In this document: positions 1-60,547 of the stretch, piece after piece
Position numbering within the stretch: position 1 is the stretch's first letter
Layout: each line of letters begins with the position of its first letter
NCBI GenBank assembly: GCA_000996895.1
Contig: LCBB01000003.1
Span: 3,659 to 67,658 of the forward strand
Reading direction: 5' to 3'
Length of the DNA stretch: 64,000 bases
Source: a candidate division WWE3 bacterium GW2011_GWC2_41_23
GTDB lineage: Bacteria > Patescibacteriota > WWE3 > UBA101185 > UBA10185
Notes under the pieces: generated by a model
What the model was told of the DNA's origin: nothing
Database searches by the model: none
The model's input: only the letters and a program-made list of their open reading frames with translations
Made by a program: the position numbers and the translations under genes

Positions 1-184
1 TCTTTTCAAACTCATCGAAATTGGCGGCTATTCTGTGGGTTATGAAACCAAAAGTCTCGCCGTTTTTTACCAGTCTGTACGATTGAACGTAGGTGGCTGT
101 TATTGCCTGCTGGAGGGTGTGAAATACCCTAACATCCACGGCTTTTTGAACACCTTGAGCTTTCGGGCTTGGGTCCATATACAT
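1..184 (-). CDS. hypothetical protein, 3' part outside window (N-terminus MYMDPSPKAQGVQKAVDVRVFHTLQQ...)
   Basis: Reverse complement of 176-200 reads AAGGAGAGAA-ATG-TAT-ATG, with the SD AAGGAG at 189-194 (minus strand). The ORF runs off the window start. It is absent from the ORF track, which likely lists only complete ORFs. Confidence 0.4.
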   Translation of the reverse strand, partial: MYMDPSPKAQGVQKAVDVRVFHTLQQAITATYVQSYRLVKNGETFGFITHRIAANFDEFEK

Positions 185-237
185 TTCTCTCCTTTTCTAA
201 GATTTACGGGGATTTTAGCACAATTTAGGGGAAATAC

Positions 238-265
238 TAAATGGAGCCAAAGGTGGGGATCGAAC
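238..265. repeat. 28-bp direct repeat (taaatggagccaaaggtggggatcgaac) identical to the tRNA-Thr 3' end plus 4 nt; att-like distal copy
   Basis: Exact 28-nt match to 2163-2190, which covers the T-loop-to-CCA 3' portion of the minus-strand tRNA-Thr plus 4 flanking nt. Confidence 0.8.
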
Positions 266-276
266 GGGGGTTAGAT

Positions 277-795
277 TTAATCCGGTACTTTCATATTTTC
301 AAATTGCTCGTTTGCCCATTTTATGTGTTCTTCCAAGCTTTGGGAAAGGCCGAAATCAGCCCTGATTTTATTCACATTCTTTGGATTTTGAAGGGGAAGT
401 GGTTCGGATACGCTCTTACCATCCATGTTCTTGTGAATCTGCATAATTTCACCGAAGCGCTGTTTTTTTCCGCTACGTACGAGAGCATTATCAATTAATA
501 TGGCAACTTTTTCTCTGTCAGATGTACATTTTAGTATTTCGTCGGATTCGCAAATGCTTTCGATGAATTTTAGGTCTCTTGAGTGGCAGGATAGTGTTAT
601 GAACCGGTTAACACCCGATTCACCTAATTTACAAACAAAATCTGTCCCGAGAGTGCCGATTAAAAACTTCAGAATGTTTGTGGTAATGGTATCTGTAATT
701 TTGACAGGTAACACACCGTATTTTCCTTGGTATCTGACTTTTTGATCTACTTTAAATAGTATTGAAAGGAAGAAATTAACTATTTTGATTTTCAT
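277..795 (-). CDS. hypothetical protein (172 aa) inside the tRNA-Thr-associated island, downstream of the ATP-grasp gene
   Basis: Complete ORF with ATG start. It follows a terminator-like hairpin after the ATP-grasp gene. No recognisable motifs and a weak SD. Confidence 0.35.
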   Translation of the reverse strand: MKIKIVNFFLSILFKVDQKVRYQGKYGVLPVKITDTITTNILKFLIGTLGTDFVCKLGESGVNRFITLSCHSRDLKFIESICESDEILKCTSDREKVAILIDNALVRSGKKQRFGEIMQIHKNMDGKSVSEPLPLQNPKNVNKIRADFGLSQSLEEHIKWANEQFENMKVPD

Positions 796-817
796 ATAAG
801 TTTATTTAAAAAAGGCC

Positions 818-850
818 TGCAGGTGGTGCAAATTTCATGCATTGTGCAGG
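818..850 (-). terminator. rho-independent terminator-like hairpin after the ATP-grasp gene
   Basis: ggcctgcag...ctgcaggcc 8-9 bp stem, followed on the minus strand by TTTTTTT (ggcctttttttaaat). Confidence 0.5.
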
Positions 851-858
851 CCTTGCTG

Positions 859-1788
859 TTAATTCAGAAGCTTAGCAATCTCTTGGGCTATAGGGTGTCT
901 GCCTCCATTTTGAACAAAAATCCACGAACCTGTCGGATTGTTCTCTAGGAAGTAGTATATACCGTCTGTGCCTAAGATAAAATCCATTGCGCTAAACTTC
1001 AACCCGAAGTTTCGGACAAATGCGACACACCTGCTTTCTAGTTCTGCTGGAAGTTCTATGCGGCTATAGATTAGTTCGCCTTTTCTCCCATCTCTATAGT
1101 CCACGTCGTTTGTTTTCCGACCGACTTGTGTAATGGAGATGGAAAACACTCTATCGCCAACCACGATTGTTCTAATGTCAAACACCCTTTCTATTTCCTC
1201 CTGAAATATTGCCGGGGAAATAGGTAGCAGGCTGAAATCAACGGGGTCCTCCAGACCTATCCTGTTGGTAAAGATTGCCAAGAGTTTTCCCTCGCTGTTT
1301 ATAAGCATCTGTTTAGCTACGGGTTTAACTACAATTTTACCAACATCTGATCTGAACCTAATTGCCTCTTCGGGGCTGCTGGTTACTAGGGTTCTGGGTA
1401 TGGTCATGCCTAAACACTTGGCGGTTTCAAGCTGTAGCTGTTTGTTATCCGCGCGTTTTATGCGGTAAGGGTTTGACACCCACCGGGCTTTTTCCAGGAG
1501 TCCGTACAACTGGAAAACCATTTCTTCTCTGCACGCCCTGTTAAGCATCTCGTACGATCCGGCTTTTTCTTTTGTGTAAAAAAGGTTGGCGATGCGAAAC
1601 CATACGGAGGTAACGCTGTCAAGATCGAGGTTGTCCAAAGAGTGTCTGAATTTGTTTCCATTCCACTCATAGGACAGTTTTGGGAAGGGTATGTCATCAA
1701 TGTTCAGGCGTACAATTGGTTTGTCAATGTACTTTGTGACTTCCTGGAGCGTACGGTCGTTTGTGAGAGTGATTACTAACAGGCACAC
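859..1788 (-). CDS. ATP-grasp ligase, RimK/MdnC-MvdD-like (candidate graspetide/ribosomal peptide maturase)
   Basis: N-terminal 'CLLVITLTNDRTLQEV...RLNIDDIPFP' and C-terminal 'DVDYRDGRK...ELPAELESRCVAFVRNFGLKFSAMDFIL..DGIYYFLENNPTGSWIF' match the ATP-grasp peptide-ligase pattern (xENNPxGxW). Proposed start is GTG at 1788, preceded by AAGGAG 9 nt upstream. The track's TTG start at 1857 would overlap the upstream terminator hairpin. Confidence 0.7.
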   Translation of the reverse strand: MCLLVITLTNDRTLQEVTKYIDKPIVRLNIDDIPFPKLSYEWNGNKFRHSLDNLDLDSVTSVWFRIANLFYTKEKAGSYEMLNRACREEMVFQLYGLLEKARWVSNPYRIKRADNKQLQLETAKCLGMTIPRTLVTSSPEEAIRFRSDVGKIVVKPVAKQMLINSEGKLLAIFTNRIGLEDPVDFSLLPISPAIFQEEIERVFDIRTIVVGDRVFSISITQVGRKTNDVDYRDGRKGELIYSRIELPAELESRCVAFVRNFGLKFSAMDFILGTDGIYYFLENNPTGSWIFVQNGGRHPIAQEIAKLLN

Positions 1789-1814
1789 GGCATTACTCTC
1801 CTTGTCGGACGTAC

Positions 1815-1855
1815 AAAAAAAGATGGGGAAGGTCTGTGGTGGTAAGCACTTCCCC
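1815..1855 (-). terminator. intrinsic terminator/attenuator between precursor peptide gene and ATP-grasp gene
   Basis: Minus strand: GGGGAAG-(17 nt loop)-CTTCCCC followed by ATCTTTTTTT. It lies between the precursor stop (1869) and the ligase SD (about 1799-1804). Confidence 0.6.
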
Positions 1856-1868
1856 AAGGTAGCGACGC

Positions 1869-1988
1869 TCAGCAGGATTCGTAGTCGGTCTGTGTCCCGC
1901 TGGTATCGGCGTCATAAGTACACTTGCCATCGCATGTGGACTCGTCCGTTCTTTCAAGAACAACAACAAATTGCTCGTAGAAAGACAT
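1869..1988 (-). CDS. candidate graspetide (microviridin-like) RiPP precursor peptide, 39 aa: MSFYEQFVVVLERTDESTCDGKCTYDADTSGTQTDYESC
   Basis: Hand translation of the minus strand. ATG at 1986-1988 with the SD AAGGAGG 6 nt upstream; TGA stop at 1869-1871. The N-terminal aromatic helix-like segment (FYEQFVVV) resembles the PFFARFL-type leader motif. The C-terminal core is rich in Thr/Ser, Asp/Glu and Lys plus 3 Cys. The gene sits immediately upstream of the ATP-grasp ligase on the same strand. Confidence 0.65.
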   Translation of the reverse strand: MSFYEQFVVVLERTDESTCDGKCTYDADTSGTQTDYESC

Positions 1989-2034
1989 TGTAACCTCCTT
2001 TCTTATATATTCGATATGTACCAATTCTGAGTGT

Positions 2035-2062
2035 ATTGTATCCCAAGCTTTTGTCCTGTCAA
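2035..2062 (-). promoter_or_regulatory. sigma70-like promoter for the precursor peptide gene (-35 TTGACA, 16-nt spacer, -10 TACAAT)
   Basis: Minus strand TTGACAggacaaaagcttgggaTACAAT, located about 45 nt upstream of the precursor ATG. Confidence 0.55.
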
Positions 2063-2162
2063 ATGTTGTGGTGGCAAGGTTTTCTCCTAATGAGGTTGCT
2101 GACCTTGGGGGTAGCCTTCGCTGTAGTGGAATCCGCGCACAGGCTTGTGTAATTTGAGTTTT

Positions 2163-2190
2163 TAAATGGAGCCAAAGGTGGGGATCGAAC
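2163..2190. repeat. proximal copy of the 28-bp direct repeat (within the tRNA-Thr 3' end)
   Basis: Identical to 238-265. Confidence 0.8.
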
Positions 2191-2241
2191 CCACAACCTG
2201 CTGTTTACAAAACAGCTGCTCTACCATTGAGCTACTTTGGC
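2167..2241 (-). tRNA. tRNA-Thr (anticodon UGU), CCA encoded
   Basis: Reverse complement is GCCAAAGTAGCTCAATGGTAGAGCAGCTGTTTTGTAAACAGCAGGTTGTGGGTTCGATCCCCACCTTTGGCTCCA. It has a 7-bp acceptor stem, a GCTC/GAGC D-stem, a GCTGT/ACAGC anticodon stem with loop TTTGTAA, and a GTGGG/CCCAC T-stem with TTCGATC loop. Confidence 0.9.
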
Positions 2242-2366
2242 GAGTGTAACGAGCCAATGAGCGATGAAGTCGCACCTTTGGCGAGGCGAAGCGGGCCAAA
2301 GACTAATGACTTTGGCGAGTGTAACGAGCCAATGAGCGATGAAGTCGCACCTTTGGCGAGGCGAGG
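2235..2366. repeat. tandem duplication (2 x 55 bp, 76-bp period) of the tRNA-Thr 5' leader plus first 7-8 nt; upstream copy carries a minimal acceptor-stem hairpin
   Basis: ctttggcgagtgtaacgagccaatgagcgatgaagtcgcacctttggcgaggcga occurs at 2235-2289 and 2311-2365. On the minus strand the upstream unit ends GCCAAAG-tcattagt-CTTTGGC. Confidence 0.75.
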
Positions 2367-2524
2367 ATAGCATAAACCAATAGATTTTAGCACGAAATTT
2401 TTTGCAATAGAAAGAGTTGTTGTCCGCGTATGCGGAGCGATCCTGTTTACGTAATCTTTATATTTGTTGTAGAATCGGGTAAATACTTTTTTCTATTCAT
2501 GTAAGTCCAAAAGGAGAGCGCTAA

Positions 2525-2743
2525 ATGAATACGAAAGATGGTGACCCACTTAGGAAGAGTGCTGTTAATTATAATACCGGTGTTTCTAATACCGGTAATA
2601 ATTGGGGCGTTTCTACACCGATGCTATGGCATGAATCTTCAAGCATCAGCATTGCGGTCGACCACTGCTTGGGTTGTCAATGCCTGGATTCAGCCTGTCT
2701 TCACTGCCGCCACAAGCAGAACAGAAACCATAACGGACACTGA
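2525..2743 (+). CDS. small Cys-rich protein (72 aa; C-terminal HCLGCQCLDSACLHCRH), unknown function
   Basis: SD AAGGAG 6 nt upstream of the ATG. A strong hairpin plus T-run terminator follows at 2803-2856. An overlapping alternative frame (2538..2765) encodes a hydrophobic 75-aa peptide, so frame assignment is uncertain. Confidence 0.4.
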   Translation: MNTKDGDPLRKSAVNYNTGVSNTGNNWGVSTPMLWHESSSISIAVDHCLGCQCLDSACLHCRHKQNRNHNGH

Positions 2744-2802
2744 CCTTAATCAGAAAAGGAGCTAACCATTCAGGTACCTGAAAAGTATTTGCCTTATTAA
2801 AG

Positions 2803-2856
2803 CCGGAGGAACTGTGAAAATTTTTTATAAATTCACAACCTCCGGCGTAGTTTTTC
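2803..2856 (+). terminator. rho-independent terminator
   Basis: ccggaggaactgtgaa...ttcacaacctccgg stem (about 14 bp) followed by cgtagTTTTTcc. Confidence 0.6.
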
Positions 2857-2924
2857 CGTCAAAAAACCCTATATTTCTCAATCGTTGACACAGCAACGGC
2901 ATGTATGGTTTAATTCACTACGTT

Positions 2925-3173
2925 ATGTCAAGAATATGCGACTTTTGCGGTAAAACTTATCAGCAAGGAAACTTGGTCCCGAGAGGGGTCGGTAACCGTG
3001 TTACCAGAAGAACCACTAACAAGAGAAAAGCTAATTTAAGAAGTAAAAGGCTTGAGATTAACGGCCGAATGGTCAGAGTCACTATCTGTGCCTCCTGTCT
3101 GAAAAGACTTAAAAAAGACATTAAAGAGGCAAATTTGGCTTTAGTACAGGCGCAAGCACAGGTAGCCGCCTAA
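2925..3173 (+). CDS. rpmB: 50S ribosomal protein L28
   Basis: MSRICDFCGK...GN...NLRSKRLEINGRMVRVTICASCLK matches the L28 family pattern including the paired Cys motifs. Start taken at the internal Met of track ORF 2901..3173. Confidence 0.8.
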   Translation: MSRICDFCGKTYQQGNLVPRGVGNRVTRRTTNKRKANLRSKRLEINGRMVRVTICASCLKRLKKDIKEANLALVQAQAQVAA

Positions 3174-4108
3174 ACGAGATATCCGTTTTCAAACTCTTTC
3201 CACGACATCATTTTTTTCCCTTCAATTTGTAAATTATCAATCGAAATTTTATCTTTTTCCGGATGCGCGGAGTATATTTTGACCGCAAGCCCGCCGTCTA
3301 CGTGATCCCTGAACTTAATTTTTCCCTGTGAAAGACACCCGGCTTCCTGAATATCTTTCAGGTAAGTCCACGCAATAGGCCAGGGGTTAAACGCCCTAAT
3401 TTTTTGGTCGATGTTTTTTGTATCATTTTTCCAGTTAATAAGCCCGTCCTCTTTAAAAACGAAGGTATTGTGAGGATGAGTTCTGGAGAAGGTGTAAGTA
3501 GCGTTGTCTTCATCCTGGGGCATGGGCTTAATACTTCCTGAGCAGTACCCAAGAATAACATCAGGAAGTTTGTCGGCGGCAACGTGGAACAAAGTTTCGT
3601 AAAGTTCTCCCGACGTTTCGGTTTGGTTCATCTTATAACCTATCTGGCTAAGGATATCACCCGCATCCATACGTTTGCTAATAAGTTGATATGTAATTCC
3701 TGTTGTTTCGTCCCCGTTTAATATCGCGAATTGTACAGGGCTTGCTCCCCGGTATTTGGGTAGAAGAGAGAAGTGTATATTAGTCAATTTTCCGTCAAAA
3801 AATTTAATGATGTCTTCCGGAATCATGTAGCTGAAATCCGCGACTACTCCGTAGTCGGGCTTGTATTTGTGAAGGTCTTCTATCACCATTCGCAGGTCAT
3901 AATCTTTCAAGGACCTTATTTCCACATACCTGACACCCTGTTCCCGCGCCCACTTTTTAACCGCGGTTTCTCTTGTTTCGTGGTTTCTCCCCACTTTGGT
4001 ATCGCTTTTAGTAACACACAAAACCAGGCTAAACTCTTTGTGAAGACTCTCAAGTATGGGGAGCGACCTGTCCGAAGTTCCGAAAAACGCGACTTTTAAT
4101 TTTTTCAC
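3170..4108 (-). CDS. fmt: methionyl-tRNA formyltransferase
   Basis: KVAFFGTS..., SLLPKYRGASPVQFAILNGDETTGITY motifs. Overlaps the def stop, as in a def-fmt operon. Confidence 0.9.
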   Translation of the reverse strand: MKKLKVAFFGTSDRSLPILESLHKEFSLVLCVTKSDTKVGRNHETRETAVKKWAREQGVRYVEIRSLKDYDLRMVIEDLHKYKPDYGVVADFSYMIPEDIIKFFDGKLTNIHFSLLPKYRGASPVQFAILNGDETTGITYQLISKRMDAGDILSQIGYKMNQTETSGELYETLFHVAADKLPDVILGYCSGSIKPMPQDEDNATYTFSRTHPHNTFVFKEDGLINWKNDTKNIDQKIRAFNPWPIAWTYLKDIQEAGCLSQGKIKFRDHVDGGLAVKIYSAHPEKDKISIDNLQIEGKKMMSWKEFENGYLV

Positions 4109-4641
4109 TGCCCCTCCTGTGAAAATAAGGCGTCCATTTCCTGCTCGGTTATTACGCCCCCAACCACTCTGTCCGTAAACAAAACGCCCTCCAAGTGGTC
4201 TATTTCATGCTGAACTGTCCTTGCAAAAAAATCCTGAGCCTTAATTTTTATGCGTTCTCCCGAAATGTCCAGAGCATCTACTTTTATTTTTTTGTAGCGT
4301 TCTACCTTTCCGTAAACATTTGGGACGCTTAGGCACCCCTCGTAATCAATTTCGGTTTCTTTGGAGGTACTCACTATTTTAGGATTTATAAGTACGTAAT
4401 CTTCGTGTGTGTACTCGCCGTTTTTGGCGGGGTCGGGAAAAAAATTCCTTACAACACACATCTTTTTTGAAACCCCGATTTGTGTAGCGGCGATGCCGGC
4501 TCCCTCAGGGTCTTTTGCCACTTCTAAGGTATCCAGCAGGTCCCGAGCAAGCTTTTTTTCTTCTTCTCCGACCTTGCTTACCTTTTGAGCCTTGTTCCGT
4601 AACACGGGGTCAGGTATTGTAACTATTTGTCTGATTGCCAT
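4105..4641 (-). CDS. def: peptide deformylase
   Basis: GIAATQIG, EGCLSVP and HEIDHLEG motifs. Confidence 0.92.
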   Translation of the reverse strand: MAIRQIVTIPDPVLRNKAQKVSKVGEEEKKLARDLLDTLEVAKDPEGAGIAATQIGVSKKMCVVRNFFPDPAKNGEYTHEDYVLINPKIVSTSKETEIDYEGCLSVPNVYGKVERYKKIKVDALDISGERIKIKAQDFFARTVQHEIDHLEGVLFTDRVVGGVITEQEMDALFSQEGQ

Positions 4642-4737
4642 GCCTCATATTTTACCACTATTAAGGGATTTCTATGTGAGTGGGGCAGTTGAGCGTACGT
4701 GTTGTGTTATACTCGAAAATGTTACTCTAAGGTAAAT

Positions 4738-4836
4738 ATGAAACTTGTAATTGTTGAGTCGCCTACAAAAGCAAAGACGCTGTCCAAGATTTTACCTCAG
4801 TCTTACAGCATAAAGTGGTTTAGGTGTGGATGTTGA
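4738..4836 (+). other. topA: topA N-terminal fragment (MKLVIVESPTKAKTLSKIL...) in a different frame from the main topA ORF
   Basis: ATG at 4738 encodes the canonical topoisomerase I TOPRIM start, ending at TGA 4834-4836 in frame 1. The rest of topA is in frame 2. Confidence 0.6.
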
Positions 4837-6868
4837 AAAAGATTTTACCCTCACATACGAAGTCCCTTCCAAAGCAAAAAAAGTTTTGACAGATTTGAAA
4901 AAAACTGCGAAAGAGGCGGAGGAAATTGTTTTAGCAACTGATCCTGATAGGGAAGGGGAGGCGATTGCATGGCACCTGGAGGAGCTGTTGCGCGGAAAAA
5001 AAGACACAAGAGTTTTTTCACGCGTTGTTTTTCACGAACTAACTAAAGAAGCAATTAACGAAGCGTTTAAAAATCCCGGAAAAATAGATTTGGATTTGGT
5101 CGACGCCCAACAAGCACGCAGGGTGCTGGACAGATTAGTGGGCTACAAACTGTCCCCATTACTTTGGAAGAAAGTTATGTACGGGCTGTCGGCAGGCCGC
5201 GTTCAGAGCGTTGCTGTGCGGTTAGTTGTTGAACGTGAAAGGGAGCGGCAGGCATTTAACCCCGAGGAATACTGGGGGGTTTTGGGGGAATTTCAAAACG
5301 GCAGCAAAAAAAAGATTCGGGCCGAGCTTTCGGAGATAAACGGCAAGAAAGTTGAGATAAAAAACGGAGGACAGGCGGAAGAAATTAAAGCCGGGGCGTT
5401 AAAAGGAACTTATTCAGTCATCTCATTAAAAAAATCAGAGCGAAAAAAGAACCCATATCCCCCTTTCAAGACATCCACTCTCCAACAGGCAATGGCCAAT
5501 ATATATGGGTTTAACGCCAAAAAAACGATGCGGGCAGCACAGGGGTTGTTTGAGAAGGGGTACATCACCTACCACAGAACGGACTCACTGAGCCTTTCCC
5601 CGCACTTTATCAATACGGCGCGCGAACTGATAAAAAAACGCTTCGGAGAGACCTATTTGCCTGCTACCCCTAACCTATATAAGACAAAGTCAGCTAATGC
5701 TCAGGAGGCACACGAAGCAATTCGTCCTACTTCGGCACATGCAGTGCCATCAAAAAGTATAGGGTTGTCAGGAGATGAGTTTAAAACATACTCGATAATT
5801 TGGTTAAGGAGTTTAGAATGCCAGATGAATCCCTCCATATATGAACAGACATCTTTATCTATAGGTTCGGATGAGGGGTATATTTTTAAGGCTTCGGGAT
5901 CCACAGTGTTGTTCGAGGGGTGGTTGGCCGTCTCAAAAATGGTCGGAGTAAAAGAGGACGAAGAGGAAACCTCTAGTATTCTTCCGGAATTAGTCGAAGG
6001 AACCAAAATGAAGCTTCTGGAGATAAAAAATGAACAACATTTTACCCAACCTCCGGCGAGATACAACGACGCTTCTTTGATAAAAAAGATGGAGGAAATG
6101 GGAGTCGGACGACCTTCGACTTACGCGCCCACACTTTCCACCATTCAGGACCGCAAATATGTGTTACGTGACGGTAGATATTTTTACCCCAACGATGTTG
6201 CTTATGTGGTCGTTGACCTTTTAGTAGAGCACTTTCCGGAAATTGTCGATTATAACTTTACAGCCCTGATGGAGGAGAGTTTGGATAAGGTTGCGGAAGG
6301 AAAAGTACAGTGGGTTCCGGTAATACGCGAATTTTATAAACCTTTCGAAAAGAAAATACTCGCGAAAGACAAAGAACTAAATAAAAGGGATGTGACAAAT
6401 CTGGGTGACAGTGAAGAAAAATGTCCGGAATGCGGCCGTGTTCTGGTTTTTAAACTAGGCAAATTCGGCAAGTTTTTAAGCTGCTCGGGATACCCGGATT
6501 GCAAGTACGCCAAGCCTTTAGAACCACTAAACGGTGTCGGCGGGGAAGATGAAGATTTTGGAAAATGCGATAAATGCGAAGATGGAATAATGGTTTTGAA
6601 GCAGGGAAGATTCGGAAAGTTTTTAGCCTGCAGCAATTATCCGAAATGCAAGAATACTAAGCCGTTTTTGGATAAAATAGGAATGAAATGCCCGCAATGC
6701 GGGGAAGGCGAGGTAGTAAAGAAAAAGTCTAAGTGGAAAGAGTTTTACGGATGCAGCAGATACCCCGATTGCGACTGGAAGAGTTGGAAGAATCCGATGG
6801 TTGTGGCAAGTGGGAATGGGGAAGATAGCGAGAAAGAGAGTGGCGATTCAATTGACAGTTTAGTTTAA
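4826..6868 (+). CDS. topA: DNA topoisomerase I (main body; three C-terminal C4 zinc ribbons)
   Basis: DPDREGEAIAWHL, YITYHRTDS, and 3x CxxC...CxxC ribbons. The apparent 5' frameshift and small deletion are described under findings. Confidence 0.85.
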   Translation: MDVEKDFTLTYEVPSKAKKVLTDLKKTAKEAEEIVLATDPDREGEAIAWHLEELLRGKKDTRVFSRVVFHELTKEAINEAFKNPGKIDLDLVDAQQARRVLDRLVGYKLSPLLWKKVMYGLSAGRVQSVAVRLVVERERERQAFNPEEYWGVLGEFQNGSKKKIRAELSEINGKKVEIKNGGQAEEIKAGALKGTYSVISLKKSERKKNPYPPFKTSTLQQAMANIYGFNAKKTMRAAQGLFEKGYITYHRTDSLSLSPHFINTARELIKKRFGETYLPATPNLYKTKSANAQEAHEAIRPTSAHAVPSKSIGLSGDEFKTYSIIWLRSLECQMNPSIYEQTSLSIGSDEGYIFKASGSTVLFEGWLAVSKMVGVKEDEEETSSILPELVEGTKMKLLEIKNEQHFTQPPARYNDASLIKKMEEMGVGRPSTYAPTLSTIQDRKYVLRDGRYFYPNDVAYVVVDLLVEHFPEIVDYNFTALMEESLDKVAEGKVQWVPVIREFYKPFEKKILAKDKELNKRDVTNLGDSEEKCPECGRVLVFKLGKFGKFLSCSGYPDCKYAKPLEPLNGVGGEDEDFGKCDKCEDGIMVLKQGRFGKFLACSNYPKCKNTKPFLDKIGMKCPQCGEGEVVKKKSKWKEFYGCSRYPDCDWKSWKNPMVVASGNGEDSEKESGDSIDSLV

Positions 6869-6990
6869 AGTTTTAAGAATTTTTCAGTAGCTTATAGCAA
6901 TTGTCATATTGCATTGTTTGTGCTAATATCCAGCCACGCGAATGCGTTAGTCAATCAGACAAAATACTCTTAGAAAGAGGAGGAGAGAAA

Positions 6991-7761
6991 ATGAACGCCA
7001 GAAACTTAAAAGGACTTTTGGTCCTGGTCTTGGTGGTTTCTTTAGTTGGTGGTTGTAGAGGATGCGATGTTATAAAGCCTACTGCTGTGTCAGTAGTGCC
7101 GTCGTCTACTCCAAAGCCTGTAGTACCCGCTGCAACCCAAACACCAACTGCAACCCAAACACCAACGGTCAAACCGACTGAAACCAACACACCGACGGTT
7201 ACGCAAACACTTGAACCGACGGTTGTTCCTACCGCGCTTTCGGCGGAGGGATACACATTCTTTGGAACCCAGCTTAAGTATTTGATTGATACTTCCGGTT
7301 GGGACTACAAGCCTTTGAATTGTGGGGCTGATGTATTTATAGGCGAAAGGAATGTGCTAATCGCAGAGTCGGGCGTCTGTCCCAGAATAATCGTTCCTGT
7401 TGCGGATAGAGCGGACGGGAGCTACCTAATTGAGGCAGAATATTGGTGGTTACCGTCGGATGGTACCAACAGCACGGCAGTACCTTTTGACCACAGATTC
7501 TATGTATACAAAGGAGACATGATAGACTCTGGGATATCCTGGCTGGATTTGGATGAATCCTCTACTATAGAGGCAATTGCAGGAGGGTATAATTTCGTTT
7601 GGGAAAAATCATTGGAAATCAGTGCTTCTATTGGAACGGAGGTGTTTCTTCCAAGCCCTGTGAAAATTTTCCCGCTCACTTCTGCAGAGTACCTATCGGT
7701 GATTTCTCGCCCGGATCTTTTTCCTCAGTATTTGGAATCTGCGGTTCAACCGAGAAAATAA
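6991..7761 (+). CDS. putative lipoprotein with Thr/Pro-rich low-complexity linker
   Basis: AGGAGG SD before ATG 6991. Signal peptide ends in the lipobox-like LVGGC. Contains TQTPTATQTPTVKPTETNTPTVTQT repeats. Confidence 0.6.
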   Translation: MNARNLKGLLVLVLVVSLVGGCRGCDVIKPTAVSVVPSSTPKPVVPAATQTPTATQTPTVKPTETNTPTVTQTLEPTVVPTALSAEGYTFFGTQLKYLIDTSGWDYKPLNCGADVFIGERNVLIAESGVCPRIIVPVADRADGSYLIEAEYWWLPSDGTNSTAVPFDHRFYVYKGDMIDSGISWLDLDESSTIEAIAGGYNFVWEKSLEISASIGTEVFLPSPVKIFPLTSAEYLSVISRPDLFPQYLESAVQPRK

Positions 7762-7861
7762 AACGGCCTTTTTGGGGACAAGTTAGTGCTTAACAACACT
7801 GAACGGTTCCCATTTTTTTTTGCTCTTGATATTTGGTGGCACCTCCGTACATAATTAATCT

Positions 7862-8416
7862 ATGAAGAAATTTTTGATAGTATCTCTAGCGTTGTTTTTT
7901 ACTGTGGCAATCTTTCTGTTTGTTGGTTGGTTTCTTCTACAAAAATACCCCGGACTGACAAGAAAAGACGCCGGTAAATTTGATAATGCTTCAAGCGGGA
8001 GTACTTTTTCTAAATTTATTGCAGAACAGCCTTACGTATTTGATATCGACGTTGGTTCCTACCCCGGGGATAAAATACTTAACATTGGGGCAGAAGAGTT
8101 CTATGAAATTCAAAGTTCTAGAGAAACTTCTGCACTTCTTGATAAAACATACAAGTTTTATTTAGTGGCTGCGATTGAAGATAGAAATAACGGATTAGTG
8201 ACTCTTTATGAAGAAGGCACAGATTCGAAGAGGCGTGTCTTTAAATGTTCGGGCGACAGGGTTTTTGCAATGAAGAATAGGAATTTTTCCTTCATTTCTT
8301 CAGGATTTGATTTTATGGAGACATTGAGTGTAGGTGACCGTGTTTATACCAAGTGTTTAAATAGTGACTGTACAACGCTGGGTCCGGATTGTATTATTGT
8401 AAAGGAGATAGAGTAA
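7862..8416 (+). CDS. hypothetical membrane-anchored protein
   Basis: N-terminal TM helix; no recognisable domain. Confidence 0.5.
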   Translation: MKKFLIVSLALFFTVAIFLFVGWFLLQKYPGLTRKDAGKFDNASSGSTFSKFIAEQPYVFDIDVGSYPGDKILNIGAEEFYEIQSSRETSALLDKTYKFYLVAAIEDRNNGLVTLYEEGTDSKRRVFKCSGDRVFAMKNRNFSFISSGFDFMETLSVGDRVYTKCLNSDCTTLGPDCIIVKEIE

Positions 8417-8427
8417 CGGGTGTTTTT

Positions 8428-11169
8428 ATGAAAGTATATTTAAAATTACTACTTTTTTATGTTGTCTTCACGATACCATTTGCTGGGGGGTTTCCCGCTG
8501 TTTCAGCTGCTACGTGCAGTTCAACCGAATGTTCGGGAGTTAAAGTTGAGAACGGTCTTACTTACTATGAATATGCGTGTGCTGGAAACACATATTGTTG
8601 CTACGCTGAGGGGTGCCCTAGCTGGGATTGCGTTGCTAGAGGTTGTTGCTGGTACTCAACAAGCGACGGCGCCGGTATGTGTAACACGAGAGCTACTTCC
8701 GGTTGTCCCGGATCATATTATGGTATATCGTGTACCATCAATGCTGCGGATGAATGCAGACCGTGCGGGGGTACTACCGGTGGCGGTGGCACAACATACG
8801 GTAAAATCATCGGCCGCATATGGAATGATGTAGATAAAAATGGCACGTATGGCGGCGTATCGGAACTATGGTCCAATACCGCTACAACGTGTTCTACATA
8901 CAAAAACGATTCTTTCAATATCCAGGAAGCGGGAACCAATAGGTTAGCTAGCTGGGCCTGCAATACCGAATGGGGTGTTCAGGCAGCATACTACACCTCG
9001 TCTGATATAGTTATCGGCTCAAAAACAATCACCCTAACAGGACTTCCTTCCGGTTATGCGTGCGGTAGCTGGTCATTTTCCAAGACCGGCGACACCAGCA
9101 CCACTGATGGCACAGGATGTGTCACAACAGCAGTTCCGATTATTGAGGGGACGAACAACCATCTATGGTGGAGAATTGTGAAAACTAATATCGCCCCTAC
9201 GCTTAGTATTGTGCCCTCCAGCGTTTCTTACTCAGGATACGCTTTGCATCCGCTTAAGATCGTTGCGGCAGATGGGGAGCCGTACGGCAGTTTAAAAATA
9301 TCTACGTCACTATCACCACCCAACAACGGGTGGCTTCCTGAGGTTCCGGCGATAAGTTTCCGTGCTTACGGTTCGACCGGCGACGGTATTTGGCCAATTG
9401 CCAAGATTTATGGTTGGAACAAGAGTACGGGCAGCCGCGTCGAGCTTAAAACTTTTAATATCAATACCGCAACTCCCACTGACTACTGGTTTGACGTTCC
9501 TTCTCCCGGTTTATACTCTTTTTTTGATTTGGAATTTACAAATGACTACAACGGGGGTGTGGGAAAGGACGTAAATCTTTACGTTGATAATCTTACCTAC
9601 ATTGCGGATAACATGTTTTATCAGACCCTTTACAAATTTGAAGCCGAGGATGCAAATCTTGTCCAGTACGATCGGTACCATCCTGACGACGGATACGGGC
9701 TGGTAAGCCCAAGTACAGCTACATCATCCGTGCCCGGCGCAACGTATGCGGTGATGGCCTGGAACGGCGCATTAAGATTTCCTGTTGTCTGGCAGTCTCC
9801 CACAACGGCGATAAACGGAAAGATTAATTTCACTGTTACGGATGATATCGGTGCTTCACTTTCCAAGTCGGTTCCAACAACGCCTATCACAGGTACTGTT
9901 ACCGGAAAGGTTTGGATAACTGCAAATCCTGCAGTATGTACGGCCTCTCATACGCCAGTTCTAACTACAGGTATAGTTACGGCAACTGCAGGCGGCACAA
10001 ATCTATCGGCACCTTTAAATTCTTTCGGTCAATACACTGTAGCCGGTTTGTTTGGCAGCATAAGCCAGTTGTGTCTTAGCGGACTGCCGGCAACCCCCGC
10101 ATACCGAATTGCGTGTAGAAACGGAGTACCCGTTTCTGCCACAACGGGTTCGTGCGACTATATCTCTCCTTCACTTTCCGGAACCGGTACCACAACAATT
10201 GATATCGGCATCCGTCCTATAACGGCAAAGGGTTGGCTGGCCGCTATGGGAAGCGATCTTTACGCAAAGGATGTTGTAGAAAGTCTTCCGCCTTACACGG
10301 GATGTCCGTTTTTGGGTAACTACTATGGTATGTGTCCGACATTCACGGAGACGCATCCTACAAGGATACCGGATCACTACGTGCTTAACTACAATCCTTG
10401 GGTAGCAACTCCCGCGTCCTCAACCGTATTTACGGAAGATGATGTGGTATCTCTTGGTCCTTCTTTGGACGAGCTGTCGGAGTCAGGGGTTTCTGCGACC
10501 CGGGTCGGTTCAAAGTTTAGAGAGAAAAACAAACAGTATTTTTCCTCTTTTCATAGTCTGATCGACACACTAAAAAATGCTCCTACCGGTACTTACAGTG
10601 CCACATCCAGTTTAAGTAACCGAACTTTTACAAAAAATTCAATAACAATCTGGAATGCCGGTACGTCGACCATTCCTGCTCCGGCCATCGGAAACTATAG
10701 TTATACCGTTTCGGACGGTTTGGCCTTTTTAGTCATTCCAAGAAACGGTCCTTCCACTAACGCGATTAACATAAACAAAATCACAACCTCAGGTGCGGGG
10801 CGTCTCGTGATTCTTGCCGATAGGGACATAAATATCGGCAGTTCTGCTGTAGGATCTTCCAACAACCTTAAAAACGATACCGCGGATATTCAGGCATCCA
10901 TTATTACAACGGGTAACGTCACCGTAAACAACTATCTGTCAGCGTCATCTTCCGCAGGGACCGTTATCATAGAGGGCCCTCTTATTATCGGGGGAGGAAC
11001 GGGAATGACGATAAACAGATCCCTTGGAACAGACAATGAATTTAGGCCTGCGGTCTTTGTCAGATTCAACCCGCTTTATATTACAAAACTAAACGATTTA
11101 GCTATGAAAAATACAATTCCTGCCCTAAATCCGCTTTTTACATTTGATTTTACAAGTGAGACGGAATAG
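8428..11169 (+). CDS. large secreted Cys-/Gly-/Thr-rich surface protein (about 913 aa), possible pilus-associated adhesin
   Basis: Signal peptide MKVYLKLLLFYVVFTIPFAGGFPAVSAA. Cys-rich N-terminal module, and a C-terminal Gly/Ser/Thr-rich region (beta-helix-like; structural interpretation is speculative). Sits directly upstream of a PilX-like gene. Confidence 0.6.
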   Translation: MKVYLKLLLFYVVFTIPFAGGFPAVSAATCSSTECSGVKVENGLTYYEYACAGNTYCCYAEGCPSWDCVARGCCWYSTSDGAGMCNTRATSGCPGSYYGISCTINAADECRPCGGTTGGGGTTYGKIIGRIWNDVDKNGTYGGVSELWSNTATTCSTYKNDSFNIQEAGTNRLASWACNTEWGVQAAYYTSSDIVIGSKTITLTGLPSGYACGSWSFSKTGDTSTTDGTGCVTTAVPIIEGTNNHLWWRIVKTNIAPTLSIVPSSVSYSGYALHPLKIVAADGEPYGSLKISTSLSPPNNGWLPEVPAISFRAYGSTGDGIWPIAKIYGWNKSTGSRVELKTFNINTATPTDYWFDVPSPGLYSFFDLEFTNDYNGGVGKDVNLYVDNLTYIADNMFYQTLYKFEAEDANLVQYDRYHPDDGYGLVSPSTATSSVPGATYAVMAWNGALRFPVVWQSPTTAINGKINFTVTDDIGASLSKSVPTTPITGTVTGKVWITANPAVCTASHTPVLTTGIVTATAGGTNLSAPLNSFGQYTVAGLFGSISQLCLSGLPATPAYRIACRNGVPVSATTGSCDYISPSLSGTGTTTIDIGIRPITAKGWLAAMGSDLYAKDVVESLPPYTGCPFLGNYYGMCPTFTETHPTRIPDHYVLNYNPWVATPASSTVFTEDDVVSLGPSLDELSESGVSATRVGSKFREKNKQYFSSFHSLIDTLKNAPTGTYSATSSLSNRTFTKNSITIWNAGTSTIPAPAIGNYSYTVSDGLAFLVIPRNGPSTNAININKITTSGAGRLVILADRDINIGSSAVGSSNNLKNDTADIQASIITTGNVTVNNYLSASSSAGTVIIEGPLIIGGGTGMTINRSLGTDNEFRPAVFVRFNPLYITKLNDLAMKNTIPALNPLFTFDFTSETE

Positions 11170-11179
11170 GCAAGTTACT

Positions 11180-12103
11180 ATGAGCGGACAAAAAACTTAC
11201 TCAAAAACCAATATTTTAAAAAACAACGAAGGGCAGGCTCTGCTTTTTGTGGTAGTAGCCCTAACTATCTCAACGGTTATTGGAGTTTCGGTAGCAACGC
11301 GTACGCTTTCCGTGACAAAAAGGGTAGCCCAAACGGATACCCAGACAAAAGTTTACTACGCGGCAGAAGCGGGGATTGAGAGATTTGTTAATCTTTCCAC
11401 CCCCGATCTTAAAGCTTTGGCAGCGGTGGGGGGTAACACGGCCGATAACTGCGCAAAGGCTAAAGCTGTTACTGCACCTAATAATTTTTGCTCGTTTACT
11501 CTTGGGAGTACTACCACGGTTGAAACCTCAACCCTTGTTAAAGTTCAGGAGATAACCTACAACGAAACCAGTCCCTCGCCGCACTACTCGGTAAAATCCA
11601 AAAACGGAATCTTTTCCTCAGTGTCGCTTTCCGGATACACCGGAAACCAGGTGACTATATGCTGGAAAGACAAGGCAGTCGAGCACACAGCCGTTTATTA
11701 CACATTATGGGGTCCTACTAATTTTATTAGCAAGGCAGTGATAAATCCTACTTCCATCGCCGGCGGCGATCCACTTTCATTTACCACTACCAATGCCCTT
11801 GATGCGGTAACTTCAGGAAACAGTATCTACAGCTCATGCCACACTGTTCTTACCCCCATTGCCTCCAACCCCTACTTTTTAAATGTCATGCCTCTGGGGG
11901 GAGACGCCACAATCGGAATCTTTCCCGGAACACAGCCCATACCTCCGCAGGGGTTTCTCATAACATCAAAAGCTTCCCTTAACACCACAAGTACACTTCA
12001 GCAGCAGGTGGTCAAAGTCATAGAAGCAACCCGCACATACAATCACGTACCCGGATTCTACGATGCCGCCCTATATGTTCAGGACGATATCATTGCGCCC
12101 TAG
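11180..12103 (+). CDS. PilX N-terminal domain-like pilus assembly/minor pilin-like protein
   Basis: EGQALLFVVVALTISTVIGVSVATRTLSVTKRVAQTDTQTKVYYAAEAGIE resembles the PilX_N pattern (G.ALI..L.LL.VLT..GVS...AAEAG.E). Confidence 0.5.
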   Translation: MSGQKTYSKTNILKNNEGQALLFVVVALTISTVIGVSVATRTLSVTKRVAQTDTQTKVYYAAEAGIERFVNLSTPDLKALAAVGGNTADNCAKAKAVTAPNNFCSFTLGSTTTVETSTLVKVQEITYNETSPSPHYSVKSKNGIFSSVSLSGYTGNQVTICWKDKAVEHTAVYYTLWGPTNFISKAVINPTSIAGGDPLSFTTTNALDAVTSGNSIYSSCHTVLTPIASNPYFLNVMPLGGDATIGIFPGTQPIPPQGFLITSKASLNTTSTLQQQVVKVIEATRTYNHVPGFYDAALYVQDDIIAP

Positions 12104-12284
12104 CTTATATTGTGCTAACTTATCAATTGCCTATATCTCCCTCCCGAAAGGGCATAGGTGAGGAGCTGCGCAAAGGCAGCGCCAAAAGTAAAAGGGAACC
12201 CGCTATTAAACTCTACGCAGTTACTGTGCGGTTTCCCAACAAATATAAATTTAAATAAGAAAGTCGTACTTAACAGAAGATACT

Positions 12285-13223
12285 ATGTCTAAATACAAAG
12301 TGCCTAAAATAGAAGATTTAATTGAAGCAGGTGTCCATTTTGGCCACCAAATTAGAAGGTGGCATCCGAAAATGGAGCCCTACATCTACACTGTCAGCAA
12401 GAATATTCATATTATTGATTTAGAGGACACCGAGCGTTTGTTGAAAGAAGCGTGCGAATTCTTAAACAAAATGGCCTCTGAAGGCAAGAAAATAGTGTTT
12501 GTCGGAACTAAAAAGCAATCCAAGGACATTATCAAGTCCGAGGCGACAAGAAGCGGGGCCATGTTTGTAAATGAAAGATGGATAGGCGGAACTATTACCA
12601 ATTTTCCTACTATAAAAAAGAACCTCGATAAATTAATCAAGTACATCCGCGGCAAAGAAACGGGGGAATTTGATAAATACACCAAGAAAGAAAGACTCCT
12701 CATTGATAGGGAAACCGACAAAATGAACCTGGTTTACGGCGGTATTTTAAGTCTCGCCGAAACCCCCGATGTCTTGTTTGTCATAGATCCTAAAAGAGAG
12801 AGAACTGCAGTAAAAGAGTCCCAGAACGCAGGAATACCTGTAGTTGCTATCGTTGATACTAATGCAGATCCTACAGGCATAGACTATATTATTCCGGGCA
12901 ACGACGACGCAATTAAGTCAGTTGCATTGTTAGTCCGTGCTATAGCCGATGCCGTCGAAGAAGGCTACAAGGACTTCGATAAAAAAGGTGCCGACCAAAG
13001 CAAGAAAGATGCAAAGAAGGCTGAGCCCGTTTCCGAAGATAAAGACGATATGGTAGTTACAACCACTGAAAGTCCTGTTGTCACTGCCGAGGTTGAAGAG
13101 ATAGAAGAAAAGCTCGTTGTCGAAGTGGTCGAACCTAAAAAGATAGAGAAGATAGAAGAAAAAGTCGAAGAAAAAAAAGAAGAAACAAAAACGCCTAAAA
13201 AGGCTAAATCAAAAAAGGCCTAA
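12285..13223 (+). CDS. rpsB: 30S ribosomal protein S2 with Lys/Glu-rich C-terminal extension
   Basis: VHFGHQIRRWHPKM..., IVFVGTKKQ, VVAIVDTNADP motifs. Confidence 0.92.
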   Translation: MSKYKVPKIEDLIEAGVHFGHQIRRWHPKMEPYIYTVSKNIHIIDLEDTERLLKEACEFLNKMASEGKKIVFVGTKKQSKDIIKSEATRSGAMFVNERWIGGTITNFPTIKKNLDKLIKYIRGKETGEFDKYTKKERLLIDRETDKMNLVYGGILSLAETPDVLFVIDPKRERTAVKESQNAGIPVVAIVDTNADPTGIDYIIPGNDDAIKSVALLVRAIADAVEEGYKDFDKKGADQSKKDAKKAEPVSEDKDDMVVTTTESPVVTAEVEEIEEKLVVEVVEPKKIEKIEEKVEEKKEETKTPKKAKSKKA

Positions 13224-13272
13224 GCATTGAGAGTACCGTAGTTACTAAACTAAATTTATATAAGGAGAAAAA

Positions 13273-13734
13273 ATGGAACTAAACATAAAAGACATTAAAA
13301 ACTTGAGAGAAGAAACCGGAGCGGGGGTTTTAGAAGTAAAACAAGCTCTGGAGAATTTTGCCGGGGATTACACCAAGGCAAAAGAAGAGTTAATGAAAAA
13401 GGTTGGCGCGAAGGCGGCTAAAAAATCTGAAAGAGTCACGAAAGACGGGTTGATTTTTTCGTATTTACACGCAGGGGGAAGAGTAGGGACTATGATATAC
13501 ATGGCCTGTGAGACCGATTTTGTAGCCAAAACAGAGGATTTTCAGAAGTTGTGCAAGGAAGTGGCTATGCAGGCCGCAACGGGTGATTACAGCTCTGTCG
13601 AAGACCTCTTGAATGACGAGTACATAAGGGAACCTTCAAAAAAGATATCAGACCTGTTGAACGAGGTCACCGCCAAGGTCGGAGAAAAAATTGAACTTAA
13701 AAAGTTCATTAAATACTCGGTCGGCGAAGACTGA
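13273..13734 (+). CDS. tsf: elongation factor Ts (short form)
   Basis: LREETGAGVLEVKQAL..., GRVGTMIYMACETDFVAKTEDFQKL. Confidence 0.85.
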   Translation: MELNIKDIKNLREETGAGVLEVKQALENFAGDYTKAKEELMKKVGAKAAKKSERVTKDGLIFSYLHAGGRVGTMIYMACETDFVAKTEDFQKLCKEVAMQAATGDYSSVEDLLNDEYIREPSKKISDLLNEVTAKVGEKIELKKFIKYSVGED

Positions 13735-13780
13735 AAACGTTTAGTTGGTAAGCCCGCGTTTTCCTGATATTATTCATCAT

Positions 13781-14329
13781 ATGAATACTTCGGAATTAAA
13801 ATCAAAACTTTCCAAAGTCCATGAGTTTCTGCAGGGAGAGTTGGGGCAGATTAGAACCGGAAGAGCATCCCCGGCTCTTATTGAGAATATTGCCGTGGAA
13901 GCTTACGGAGCCAAAATGATGGTAATAGAGCTGGGTTCCATTACGGTTTCGGACTCCCAAAATCTTGTGGTAGTGCCTTGGGACAAAGGTCTTATTAAAT
14001 CCATAACAAAAGCTATAAGAGAAAGTCAGGCAAGTCTTAATCCTATTGAAGAAAGTGACAGGATTAGAATACCCGTGCCCTCACTAACGGAAGAAAGGCG
14101 AAAGGAATTGGCAAAAATCGTCGGTGTAAAAGCAGAAGAAGCCAAGAACTCCGTAAGAAATATAAGACAGGACGCTATGAAGGACATTGAAAAAATGTTC
14201 TCCGATAAAAGCATCGGTGAAGATGAAAAATTCCGTCTCAAGGAAGAAGTTGAAAAGACAGCCAAAGAGTTCACTGACGGGGTAGAAGAAATAAGCGAGA
14301 CAAAACGATCCGAAATTTTATCAATCTAA
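13781..14329 (+). CDS. frr: ribosome recycling factor
   Basis: Classic RRF sequence (LGQIRTGRASPALIENIAVEAYG...). Confidence 0.9.
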   Translation: MNTSELKSKLSKVHEFLQGELGQIRTGRASPALIENIAVEAYGAKMMVIELGSITVSDSQNLVVVPWDKGLIKSITKAIRESQASLNPIEESDRIRIPVPSLTEERRKELAKIVGVKAEEAKNSVRNIRQDAMKDIEKMFSDKSIGEDEKFRLKEEVEKTAKEFTDGVEEISETKRSEILSI

Positions 14330-14346
14330 AGTTCCGGTTTTAAATA

Positions 14347-15474
14347 ATGACAACTCTAATAATCTTTATATTAATACTCTCGGTTTTGGTTCTAATCCAC
14401 GAGTTCGGGCATTTTATGGCCGCAAAAGCCAATGGGGTTAGAGTAGAGGAGTTCGGATGGGGGCTTCCCCCCAGGGTATTCGGGAAGAAGTTCGGAGAGA
14501 CCATCTACTCGATTAATCTGTTGCCTTTCGGGGGTTTTGTAAAACTTACAGGCGAAGATTCAGAAGAGGCTACCTCCGCCAAGGACCCCAAAAGCTTTAC
14601 ATCGAAAACACCGTTACAGAGGGCAATAATACTAATCGCGGGTGTTTTTATGAACGTAGTCTTAGCCGTTACAATTTTCTATGTTTTTATGTTCGTGAAC
14701 GGTTTCAAAACTTTCCAGATGCCACTTATATTCGATTATGATTTTAAGTTCGGAGAGACCACAAAAATCGGAACGGTGATCTCAGGCATTCAGCCGGGTT
14801 CTCCTGCTGAAAAAGCCGGATTGACCTTAGGCGAGGCGGTAACTGCTGTAAACGGCAGGAAGGTTACCGATATCACACAGTTTAAAAATACTCTGGCTGA
14901 ATACAAGGGAGAGCCTGTAAAACTCACGTTAAATGACTTAAAAGACACTACTTACACAAAGATACGGGACGTTCAGGTTTCTCCTACAAAAGATGAAGCC
15001 GGAAAACCCATCATAGGTGTCTACCTCGGTGAGTCGGTGTCTATTTCATACGAGAAGCCCCTTGATAGGGTTCTTGTGGGTTTTTATCACTCCTATAATG
15101 TGATGGGTTACTCGTTGAATACCTTAAGTCAGATGGTTGCCCTTTCGTTTAAAACAAAAGACATCTCCCCGGTTTCAGAAAGTGTCTCGGGGCCGGTTGG
15201 AATTTATAATCTTGTTGATATGGTTTTGAAATACGGAGGACCTAACGCTTGGCTTACGTTGTTTGATTACACCGCGCTTATGTCTTTAAGTTTGGCGCTT
15301 GTTAACATAATGCCTTTTCCGGCGCTGGACGGCGGCAGAGTAGCCTTTGTATTGTTTGAGGGGGTAACACGTAAGAAACCCAACCCTAAAACGGAGGCTG
15401 CTTTTCACAGGCTGGGAATGTTTTTCTTGCTGGGCTTTTTAATACTCATAACAATCAAAGATGTGGTCAGGTAA
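14347..15474 (+). CDS. rseP: RIP metalloprotease RseP (site-2 protease, PDZ domain)
   Basis: HEFGHFMAAK HExxH motif, PDZ segment and the C-terminal LDGG motif. Confidence 0.85.
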   Translation: MTTLIIFILILSVLVLIHEFGHFMAAKANGVRVEEFGWGLPPRVFGKKFGETIYSINLLPFGGFVKLTGEDSEEATSAKDPKSFTSKTPLQRAIILIAGVFMNVVLAVTIFYVFMFVNGFKTFQMPLIFDYDFKFGETTKIGTVISGIQPGSPAEKAGLTLGEAVTAVNGRKVTDITQFKNTLAEYKGEPVKLTLNDLKDTTYTKIRDVQVSPTKDEAGKPIIGVYLGESVSISYEKPLDRVLVGFYHSYNVMGYSLNTLSQMVALSFKTKDISPVSESVSGPVGIYNLVDMVLKYGGPNAWLTLFDYTALMSLSLALVNIMPFPALDGGRVAFVLFEGVTRKKPNPKTEAAFHRLGMFFLLGFLILITIKDVVR

Positions 15475-15781
15475 GATTTGTCATTGTAGCTGCAAGAATT
15501 AGAAGCCGGTCTTTTTAGGTTATATCCCGAGCATTTTACCCGTGTGTTCTAATAGTAAAAATTTGACATAGGTAATATACTAGAAATTGACGTAATGTTC
15601 TGGTAGAATCGTTCGGCTCTCTGTTAGTTACTGGTTAAACTGTTAACATACGAAGAAGCCAAGTGCCAGAATTGTGCATAAGTACGGAAGCGCGTTTTTA
15701 TTTAATACAAAGCGTTTGGAGGTGCCTACTGAATAGCAGTCTATATTAATTAGCACTAATTGATAATAGCTGCTCATCATA

Positions 15782-35938: not shown

Positions 35939-35966
35939 AAAATTATGAAACGGACAGCCTCTGCAG

Positions 35967-46506: not shown

Positions 46507-47547
46507 ATGACTAAAGTATCGTTAGACTCAAATCTCTCCGACGTGATAACCCAGTACCTCGAGTATTGTGAGATAGAAAAGAACCTCTCGCAGAACACTC
46601 TCAAAATGTATCATTTTTATTTAACGGATTTTTTAGAATGGCTGGGTGCGTTTTTAAAAATAGACAAAATCACCCTGGCGGAAATTACCGACGACAATAT
46701 TAAAAAATACAGACTTGATCTTAACCGCAGAATAAGTAGAAAATCCAACATGGAATTTAAACGTTCCACCCAAAAGACTTTTTTGGTTGCAATAAGGGCT
46801 TTATTGAAGTATTTGGTGGTTGAAACGGAGGTTGAGATTATGTCTCCGGAACAGATAATACTTGGAAAATCGGACGACCGTGTGCCCAAAGTCCTTAACG
46901 AAGAGCAGATGAAAAGGCTATTTGACGGCCAGGACCTGAGCAAAAGGTCCGGAATAAGGGACCGAGCCATTTTAGAAACTTTGTACAGTACGGGGCTTCG
47001 TGTTAGCGAACTCACCAAGTTAAACAGAGACGACGTTAATCTTATTTCCGGAGAGTTTACCGTTATAGGTAAGGGACGCAAAGCAAGAACTGTCTATTTA
47101 TCCCCCGCAGCAAAAGACTGGATAAAAAGGTACCTGGGGATTCGGGGGGATTCTTTTAAACCTTTATTTCTAAGATATTCAGGTAAGCACATGGAGTCGG
47201 ATGATTTTGACGGCGAGTCGTTGAGGCTTACAGTGCGCAGCGTTGAAAGAATGATTAAGAAATATGTTACGAACTCCGGCATTTCCGTTGATGCTACGCC
47301 CCATACTCTCAGGCACACTTACGCCACAGGGCTGCTTCAGGAGGGGGCGGATTTAAGAAGCGTTCAGGAATTGTTAGGCCACTCTAATGTTTCTACGACA
47401 CAGATTTACACCCACATCACGAACAGGCAGCTTAAAAACATTCATAAGCTTTATCACAAGGATATTGACGGTAAGCCGGCTTCTTACGCAAAAGACAACG
47501 AAGAAGATGTTAGTGACGACGACGCAGGAATAACTTCTTTAAGCTAA
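46507..47547 (+). CDS. tyrosine site-specific recombinase (XerC/XerD-like integrase family)
   Basis: RAILETLYSTGLRVSEL, HTLRHTYAT, LLGHSNVSTTQIYTHI with catalytic R-H-R-Y. Carries a C-terminal acidic extension. Confidence 0.85.
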   Translation: MTKVSLDSNLSDVITQYLEYCEIEKNLSQNTLKMYHFYLTDFLEWLGAFLKIDKITLAEITDDNIKKYRLDLNRRISRKSNMEFKRSTQKTFLVAIRALLKYLVVETEVEIMSPEQIILGKSDDRVPKVLNEEQMKRLFDGQDLSKRSGIRDRAILETLYSTGLRVSELTKLNRDDVNLISGEFTVIGKGRKARTVYLSPAAKDWIKRYLGIRGDSFKPLFLRYSGKHMESDDFDGESLRLTVRSVERMIKKYVTNSGISVDATPHTLRHTYATGLLQEGADLRSVQELLGHSNVSTTQIYTHITNRQLKNIHKLYHKDIDGKPASYAKDNEEDVSDDDAGITSLS

Positions 47548-59401: not shown

Positions 59402-59471
59402 TAAAAGTATGTTCGTATTTGTAGGTATAAAAATAAGGATTTTATTAAAAAAAGGAGAGAATAATTAAAGT

Positions 59472-60545: not shown

Positions 60546-60547
60546 GC

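Follow-up and report, generated by a model that had tools for sequence, protein, structure and literature searches.

The window is the whole 64,000-nt stretch analysed here, taken from the deposited draft genome of the WWE3 (Katanobacteria) bacterium GW2011_GWC2_41_23, a metagenome-assembled genome from aquifer groundwater, and it carries topA, the gene for a type IA topoisomerase, in two pieces (table 1). The first piece starts at the ATG at 4738 with MKLVIVESPTKAKTLSKILPQSYSIK, which represents 26 authentic topA codons and includes the VESP motif with the TOPRIM catalytic Glu. It then runs through six out-of-frame codons (WFRCGC) into the stop codon TGA at 4834-4836. The second piece lies in the next frame relative to the 5' fragment, opens with GVDVEKDF... 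and has its first possible start at GTG 4826, and the two ORFs overlap by 11 nt. Thus far we agree with the first-pass annotation, which had described a topA split over two frames at just these positions. The 680-aa product of the second piece contains the rest of TOPRIM (DPDREGE), a Topoisom_bac domain with the active-site motif GYITYHRTDS (PF01131, E = 8.4e-123 in Pfam) and the C-terminal zinc ribbons, which were recognized as three matched stretches of Zn_ribbon_Top1 (PF01396). In addition, it is exactly the protein KKS03298.1 (UniRef100_A0A0G0YSE3; UniProt A0A0G0YSE3), which is annotated as "topoisomerase protein" and is encoded on a contig of 91,033 bp.

Table 1. Features of the window, and topA deletions of the window and of three sibling GW2011 genomes (topA positions count from its start codon)
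Feature	Position	Strand	Description
topA 5' fragment	4738..4836	+	32-codon ORF: 26 authentic codons, then 6 out-of-frame codons, TGA
topA deletion junction	4812..4815	+	35 nt gone at 4814/4815; the exact place can vary by 3 nt within AAA
topA 3' part	4826..6868	+	680-codon ORF; deposited protein KKS03298.1, 680 aa
Deletion 2	25893/25894	+	45 nt in ssb, in frame; EMRYTPQGNAVASFV lost
Deletion 3	35948/35949	+	38 nt just past the efp ATG; frameshift
Deletion 4	46486/46487	+	39 nt intergenic, TGCAACTAAACCAAGGAGCGACGTCCCAGGATGCCCCAG; upstream of tyrosine-integrase gene 46507..47547
gyrA	49357-51927	minus	intact
H+-pyrophosphatase gene	52089-54314	minus	between gyrB and gyrA
gyrB	54828-56807	minus	intact
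Type IV pilus-like cluster	57638-63283		two T2SSE ATPases, T2SSF, prepilin peptidase, N_methyl pilins
topA of GWC2_41_23 (window)	topA +77/78		35 nt deleted; no other topA deletion
topA of GWE1_41_72	topA +77/78; +600-620		29 nt deleted; 21 nt at +600
topA of GWF1_42_51	topA +77/78; +615-634		42 nt deleted, in frame; 20 nt at +615
topA of GWB1_42_41	topA +77/78; +457-523		4 nt deleted; 67 nt at +457

The Pfam profile of Toprim is divided between the two ORFs. Profile positions 1-20 fall on the short ORF and positions 39-96 on the long one, and positions 21-38 are absent from the topA of the window. Thus, the middle of the TOPRIM domain is missing from the DNA itself. TOPRIM in full (catalytic Glu, GHxRDLP block and DxDxE) and Topoisom_bac are united in one polypeptide in the intact protein of the same strain and not in the window. 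Alignments to intact alleles showed that the lost segment is AGCATCGATGGGCCACATCAGGGATCTCCCTAAAA, which encodes ASMGHIRDLPK plus 2 nt, and that the window reads ...CAGCATAAAGTGGTTTAGG... across the junction. By alignment, the missing block is equivalent to residues 29-39 of E. coli TopA, with the conserved GHIRDLP inside. The absence of this conserved block had already been noticed in the first pass and was confirmed here. However, the loss had been put at about 15 codons, and it is exactly 35 nt, that is, 11 codons plus 2 nt.

The intact TopA of the same strain (P0132) was found by homology search and cluster look-up, and it has 721 aa. Its residues 1-26 are identical to the 5' fragment of the window and its residues 42-721 are identical to the 680-aa ORF. 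What it holds in addition to the window is ASMGHIRDLPK, placed between ...SYSIK and SGLGVDVEKDF.... The protein contains the motifs VESP, DPDREGE and GYITYHRTDS and the C-terminal zinc ribbons, and its alignment with E. coli TopA spans the TOPRIM and cleavage domains in full (E = 2e-59). In the assembly collection the 721-aa protein is indexed in 66 blocks, and each of the 24 contigs examined encodes it. When the neighbouring def gene was used as a handle, the 721-aa topA was likewise found alongside it in 23 of 23 further contigs examined, one of which was, by its name, assembled from run SRR1658467. Furthermore, the two parts of the window (1-4814 and 4812-16868) matched four other sequences at 100.000% identity and without a mismatch, namely two contigs from ENA whose names are in MEGAHIT style, a JGI contig of 191,928 bp and an ANAN16 scaffold from ENA (L002, L003, L004 and L007), and the only difference from these four across 1-16868 was the 35-nt gap at 4814/4815. 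The same-strain assemblies were taken from JGI, ENA and other NCBI genomes, and the intact ones may or may not derive from sample C2. The gene is intact in every independent assembly of the strain that was examined, and we therefore consider the break in topA to be almost certainly an assembly error and not biology.

Full topA spacing was seen in all 12 other fetched loci that matched the pattern (11 distinct contigs), and among all the loci fetched, shortened alleles were seen only in four GW2011 records. A flexible junction pattern gave one match among the metagenome contigs (L016), with the intact length, and no match among the genome contigs. Meanwhile, the exact-product look-up of the 680-aa ORF returned no called gene that is indexed, the product being present in the cluster table as KKS03298.1. 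Exact-product look-ups of the 32-aa and 45-aa upstream ORFs, which would reveal other contigs with the same junction, found nothing on record.

The frame shifts by one position between the two topA ORFs, as it would if one base were extra or missing, and the first-pass annotation had listed a sequencing indel together with an assembly indel among its options. The alignment with the intact allele upholds the assembly indel, in the form of a 35-nt loss, and speaks against the one-base sequencing error. The loss is clean and without substitutions, and a single-base repair would give one ORF that is still about 12 residues short. The simple sequencing error of one base, which the first-pass annotation had named as the finding that would refute its observation, is thus contradicted by the alignment, and we give it practically no chance.

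Another option was that the gene is split and still functional, either as a 32-aa peptide and a 680-aa protein whose translation restarts at GTG 4826, or through a programmed frameshift or bypass. The 11-nt overlap of the ORFs and the GTG at 4826 would suit such an arrangement. However, 11 codons, including the conserved GHIRDLP block, are gone from the DNA, and recoding cannot supply DNA that is absent. The comparison with topA of close relatives, which had been recommended earlier, was carried out and showed one continuous ORF in relatives at 93%, 90%, 82% and 74% identity and in the identical strain, so the split arrangement is not conserved. In addition, sibling genomes carry other lesions in the gene, one of which is 42 nt long and in frame. 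A split or recoded topoisomerase is therefore hardly credible.

We compared the intact allele with topA of three sibling GW2011 genomes from this strain and found no substitutions in the flanks of their deletions. Together with the window they show four different first deletions, all of which can share one left end, after CAGCATAAA (table 1). A genuine pseudogene would be expected to show the same lesion in independent samplings. However, the lesion differs in each of these GW2011 genomes and all other assemblies are without it. Neither a pseudogene nor a recoding signal would be expected to give four distinct lesions in a single gene of a single clonal genotype, with a different one fixed in the consensus of each sample. 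Sibling GW2011 genomes also have private losses elsewhere; for example, GWA1_42_46 lacks 202 nt near ssb and GWF1_42_51 lacks 71 nt near 46.3 kb.

Could the deletion nevertheless be real? One reading is that a very recent 35-nt deletion has turned topA into a pseudogene in the C2 subpopulation and is compensated, for example by reduced gyrase activity. The deletion is present in the deposited record and frameshifts topA, and both gyrA and gyrB lie in the window. Furthermore, the lost segment is bordered by a short, imperfect direct repeat (TAAAAG...TAAAAG, 34 nt apart), at which slippage might be favoured. However, slippage between these copies would cost 34 nt and not 35, and the siblings lose 29, 42 and 4 nt; repeat-mediated slippage was thus rejected as a cause. 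In addition, three siblings have different deletions at the same spot of topA, the independent assemblies are all intact, and this reading needs simultaneous damage to ssb and efp in a genome that is otherwise 100.000% identical, with three of its four lesions on branch points of the assembly graph. The same genotype is intact in every independent assembly examined and the siblings differ at the same point. The recent pseudogenisation proposed in the first pass is thus not supported, and we regard a real deletion as very unlikely.

A related reading takes the fixed end itself as biological. The deletions that start at topA +78 (4, 29, 35 and 42 nt in four samples) would then mark a real fragile or targeted site in the WWE3 population. 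For instance, DNA cut at a specific site could be resected on one side and its ends then joined, which would leave the right ends variable and produce topA-defective cells beside an intact majority, and different assemblies could capture these cells variously. We consider a fragile site of this kind extremely improbable.

The position of the left end is better explained by strain divergence. A second, co-occurring WWE3 strain has a TopA (P0126) that is 93% identical to that of the window strain, and both strains were binned from sample GWE1 (GWE1_41_27 and GWE1_41_72). One contig of this second strain (L011) shows no difference from the window strain between -343 and +80 of topA (424 nt). Its differences begin at +81, +84, +105, +118 and +120 and are dense afterwards. 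The segment deleted in the window, +78 to +112, starts 3 nt before the first of these SNPs and holds the first three of them. The left breakpoint lies 3 nt ahead of the first SNP that separates two co-occurring strains, and thus we take it to be a branch point of the assembly graph. Furthermore, the additional topA deletions of the siblings (+457-523, +600-620 and +615-634) also lie in SNP-dense stretches.

Independent assemblies were also tiled over the whole 64 kb, and three to five same-strain assemblies were compared per region. The window was 100.000% identical to most of them, with at most a few single-base differences, apart from four losses, of which the one in topA is the first (table 1). 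The second lies in ssb (25838-26245). By translation, it removes EMRYTPQGNAVASFV, which is part of the OB fold, and the segment is kept in 5 of 5 independent assemblies compared. The third lies in efp (35945-36458, ATG at 35945-35947), directly downstream of tRNA-Leu(caa) at 35852-35938. By translation, the window reads MKRTASAGD and a stop, and the remainder follows in another frame to 36458; efp is intact in the five other assemblies compared. The first-pass annotation had found a broken topoisomerase gene surprising because it took the other essential genes here to be intact. The deletions in ssb and efp make this premise false.

Two of these further losses also coincide with boundaries between strains. 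The ssb deletion includes L017 position 7108, the final SNP ahead of a 14.8-kb stretch in which strain L022 does not differ from the window strain, and the efp deletion includes L024 positions 6227, 6235 and 6237, the final SNPs ahead of 16 kb of such identity in strain L025. Thus the coincidence of a lesion with a strain-variant branch is seen for topA, ssb and efp, and the fourth site is not tied to such a branch: no strain boundary was found at 46486/46487 in the one strain compared there (L026). Possibly an integrated element has its edge here. Similar lesions recur, with four deletions of 35-45 nt in the 64 kb of the window and losses of 4, 20, 21, 29, 42, 67, 71 and 202 nt in sibling GW2011 genomes.

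Taken from these comparisons, the deletion is unique to one assembly, its flanks equal the intact alleles, lesions fall at branch points between strains and similar lesions recur. We therefore propose, with a probability of roughly 94%, that topA was split by a local misassembly in the draft genome deposited for GW2011_GWC2_41_23 and that the organism has a normal, continuous gene for a 721-aa type IA topoisomerase. From the comparison of assemblies we also infer that read support for the topA junction would be missing.

The process may have been as follows. Two closely related WWE3 strains would co-occur in the sampled aquifer, with sequences that are the same for 424 nt up to topA +80 and divergent beyond. 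The divergence after the shared stretch would create a branch in a de Bruijn graph assembly, and contigs would end there. When the contigs were rejoined, a few dozen nucleotides at and near the first SNPs would have been dropped and no Ns left; the step that dropped them was presumably scaffolding, automated error repair or gap handling. The same process would have damaged ssb, efp and the intergenic site in the window, and other sites in the sibling assemblies. There is no N anywhere in the window, so the gap must have been closed or stripped silently if this proposal is right, and the stripping of N gaps is compatible with the N-free window. Elsewhere in the same strain Ns are handled in other ways; in a UBA-type assembly NN stands where small stretches have been lost, and runs of N are retained in the ENA ANAN16 scaffolds. 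A later paper of the same group states that IDBA-UD was used sample by sample on reads from the aquifer and that scaffolding errors were reassembled with Velvet (PMC4736985). In addition, the script ra2.py mends local errors of scaffolding or puts Ns in their place (PMC5220378).

Some other observations were made in the window and in related contigs. First, a 56-nt sequence is repeated directly and perfectly, with a period of 75 nt, at 2234-2289 and 2309-2364, and the first of the two copies extends into the 5' end of tRNA-Thr(tgt) (2167-2241, minus strand). The repeat occurs in 7 of 7 assemblies compared over this stretch and is thus real, and it may be a duplicated tRNA upstream region. Second, when 11082-52228 of the window was compared with L022, L025 and L026, the co-occurring WWE3 strains appeared as a mosaic, in which identity is 100% over blocks of 10-16 kb and then changes sharply to about 80% or 92%. 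Such changes lie near 25.9 kb and 35.9 kb; in L026, the switch from 92% to 100% lies somewhere before 46.2 kb. The mosaic could be caused either by recent homologous recombination between populations or by chimeric contigs in the ENA assemblies. Third, small losses occur in the same strain in the products of other pipelines. For example, the TPA assembly DMHP01000008.1 (L005/L020; window 12266-12345) lacks 78 nt at the start of rpsB, flagged only by NN, and a JGI assembly (3300025073, L006/L021; window 16634-16680) has lost about 50 nt, by which ybeY and pth are fused into one 270-aa call.

On the sequence evidence, the interruption of topA is almost certainly not a real biological feature, and this WWE3 bacterium almost certainly has an ordinary, intact topoisomerase I. 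The value of the result is a warning about the record. KKS03298.1 (A0A0G0YSE3) almost certainly stands in GenBank and UniProt as a truncated artefact, and in this contig at least topA, ssb and efp are very probably corrupted by silent losses of 35-45 nt, with similar lesions in the sibling GW2011 genomes of WWE3. Inferences about gene loss, pseudogenes and minimal genomes in the candidate phyla radiation (CPR) would be misled by such drafts. Meanwhile, the lesions lie at boundaries of strain divergence, and comparison among sibling assemblies would be a simple way to flag errors of this type.

The topA of the window resembles gene 60 of phage T4, which encodes a topoisomerase subunit and is read by programmed translational bypass, in that a topoisomerase-related coding sequence is not one continuous ORF in the DNA. 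Gene 60 of T4 contains 50 extra nucleotides, which are skipped by the ribosome. However, in the window coding nucleotides of topA are missing and not extra, and thus bypass cannot mend the protein; moreover, the feature is not conserved. Meanwhile, the intact allele is similar to the type IA TopA of E. coli (1ECL/1MW8) and T. maritima (2GAI), with a full TOPRIM, the cleavage domains and zinc ribbons. Unlike E. coli TopA, the gene in the window is interrupted and lacks the equivalent of residues 29-39, which we regard as a property of the record and not of the organism.

The closest parallel is found in the errors described for metagenome-assembled genomes (MAGs) by Chen et al. (2020, Genome Res 30:315; PMC7111523), which include unsupported consensus, N gaps whose flanks overlap and erroneous repeat counts. 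As in their IDBA-UD scaffolds curated with ra2.py, the window shows short, presumably unsupported stretches at points of strain variation. In addition, genes are truncated or frameshifted in the deposited genomes, the positions vary among assemblies of the same population, and the errors are absent when other tools are used. However, the window differs from those cases in that its 35-45 nt are lost silently, with no Ns left at the site.
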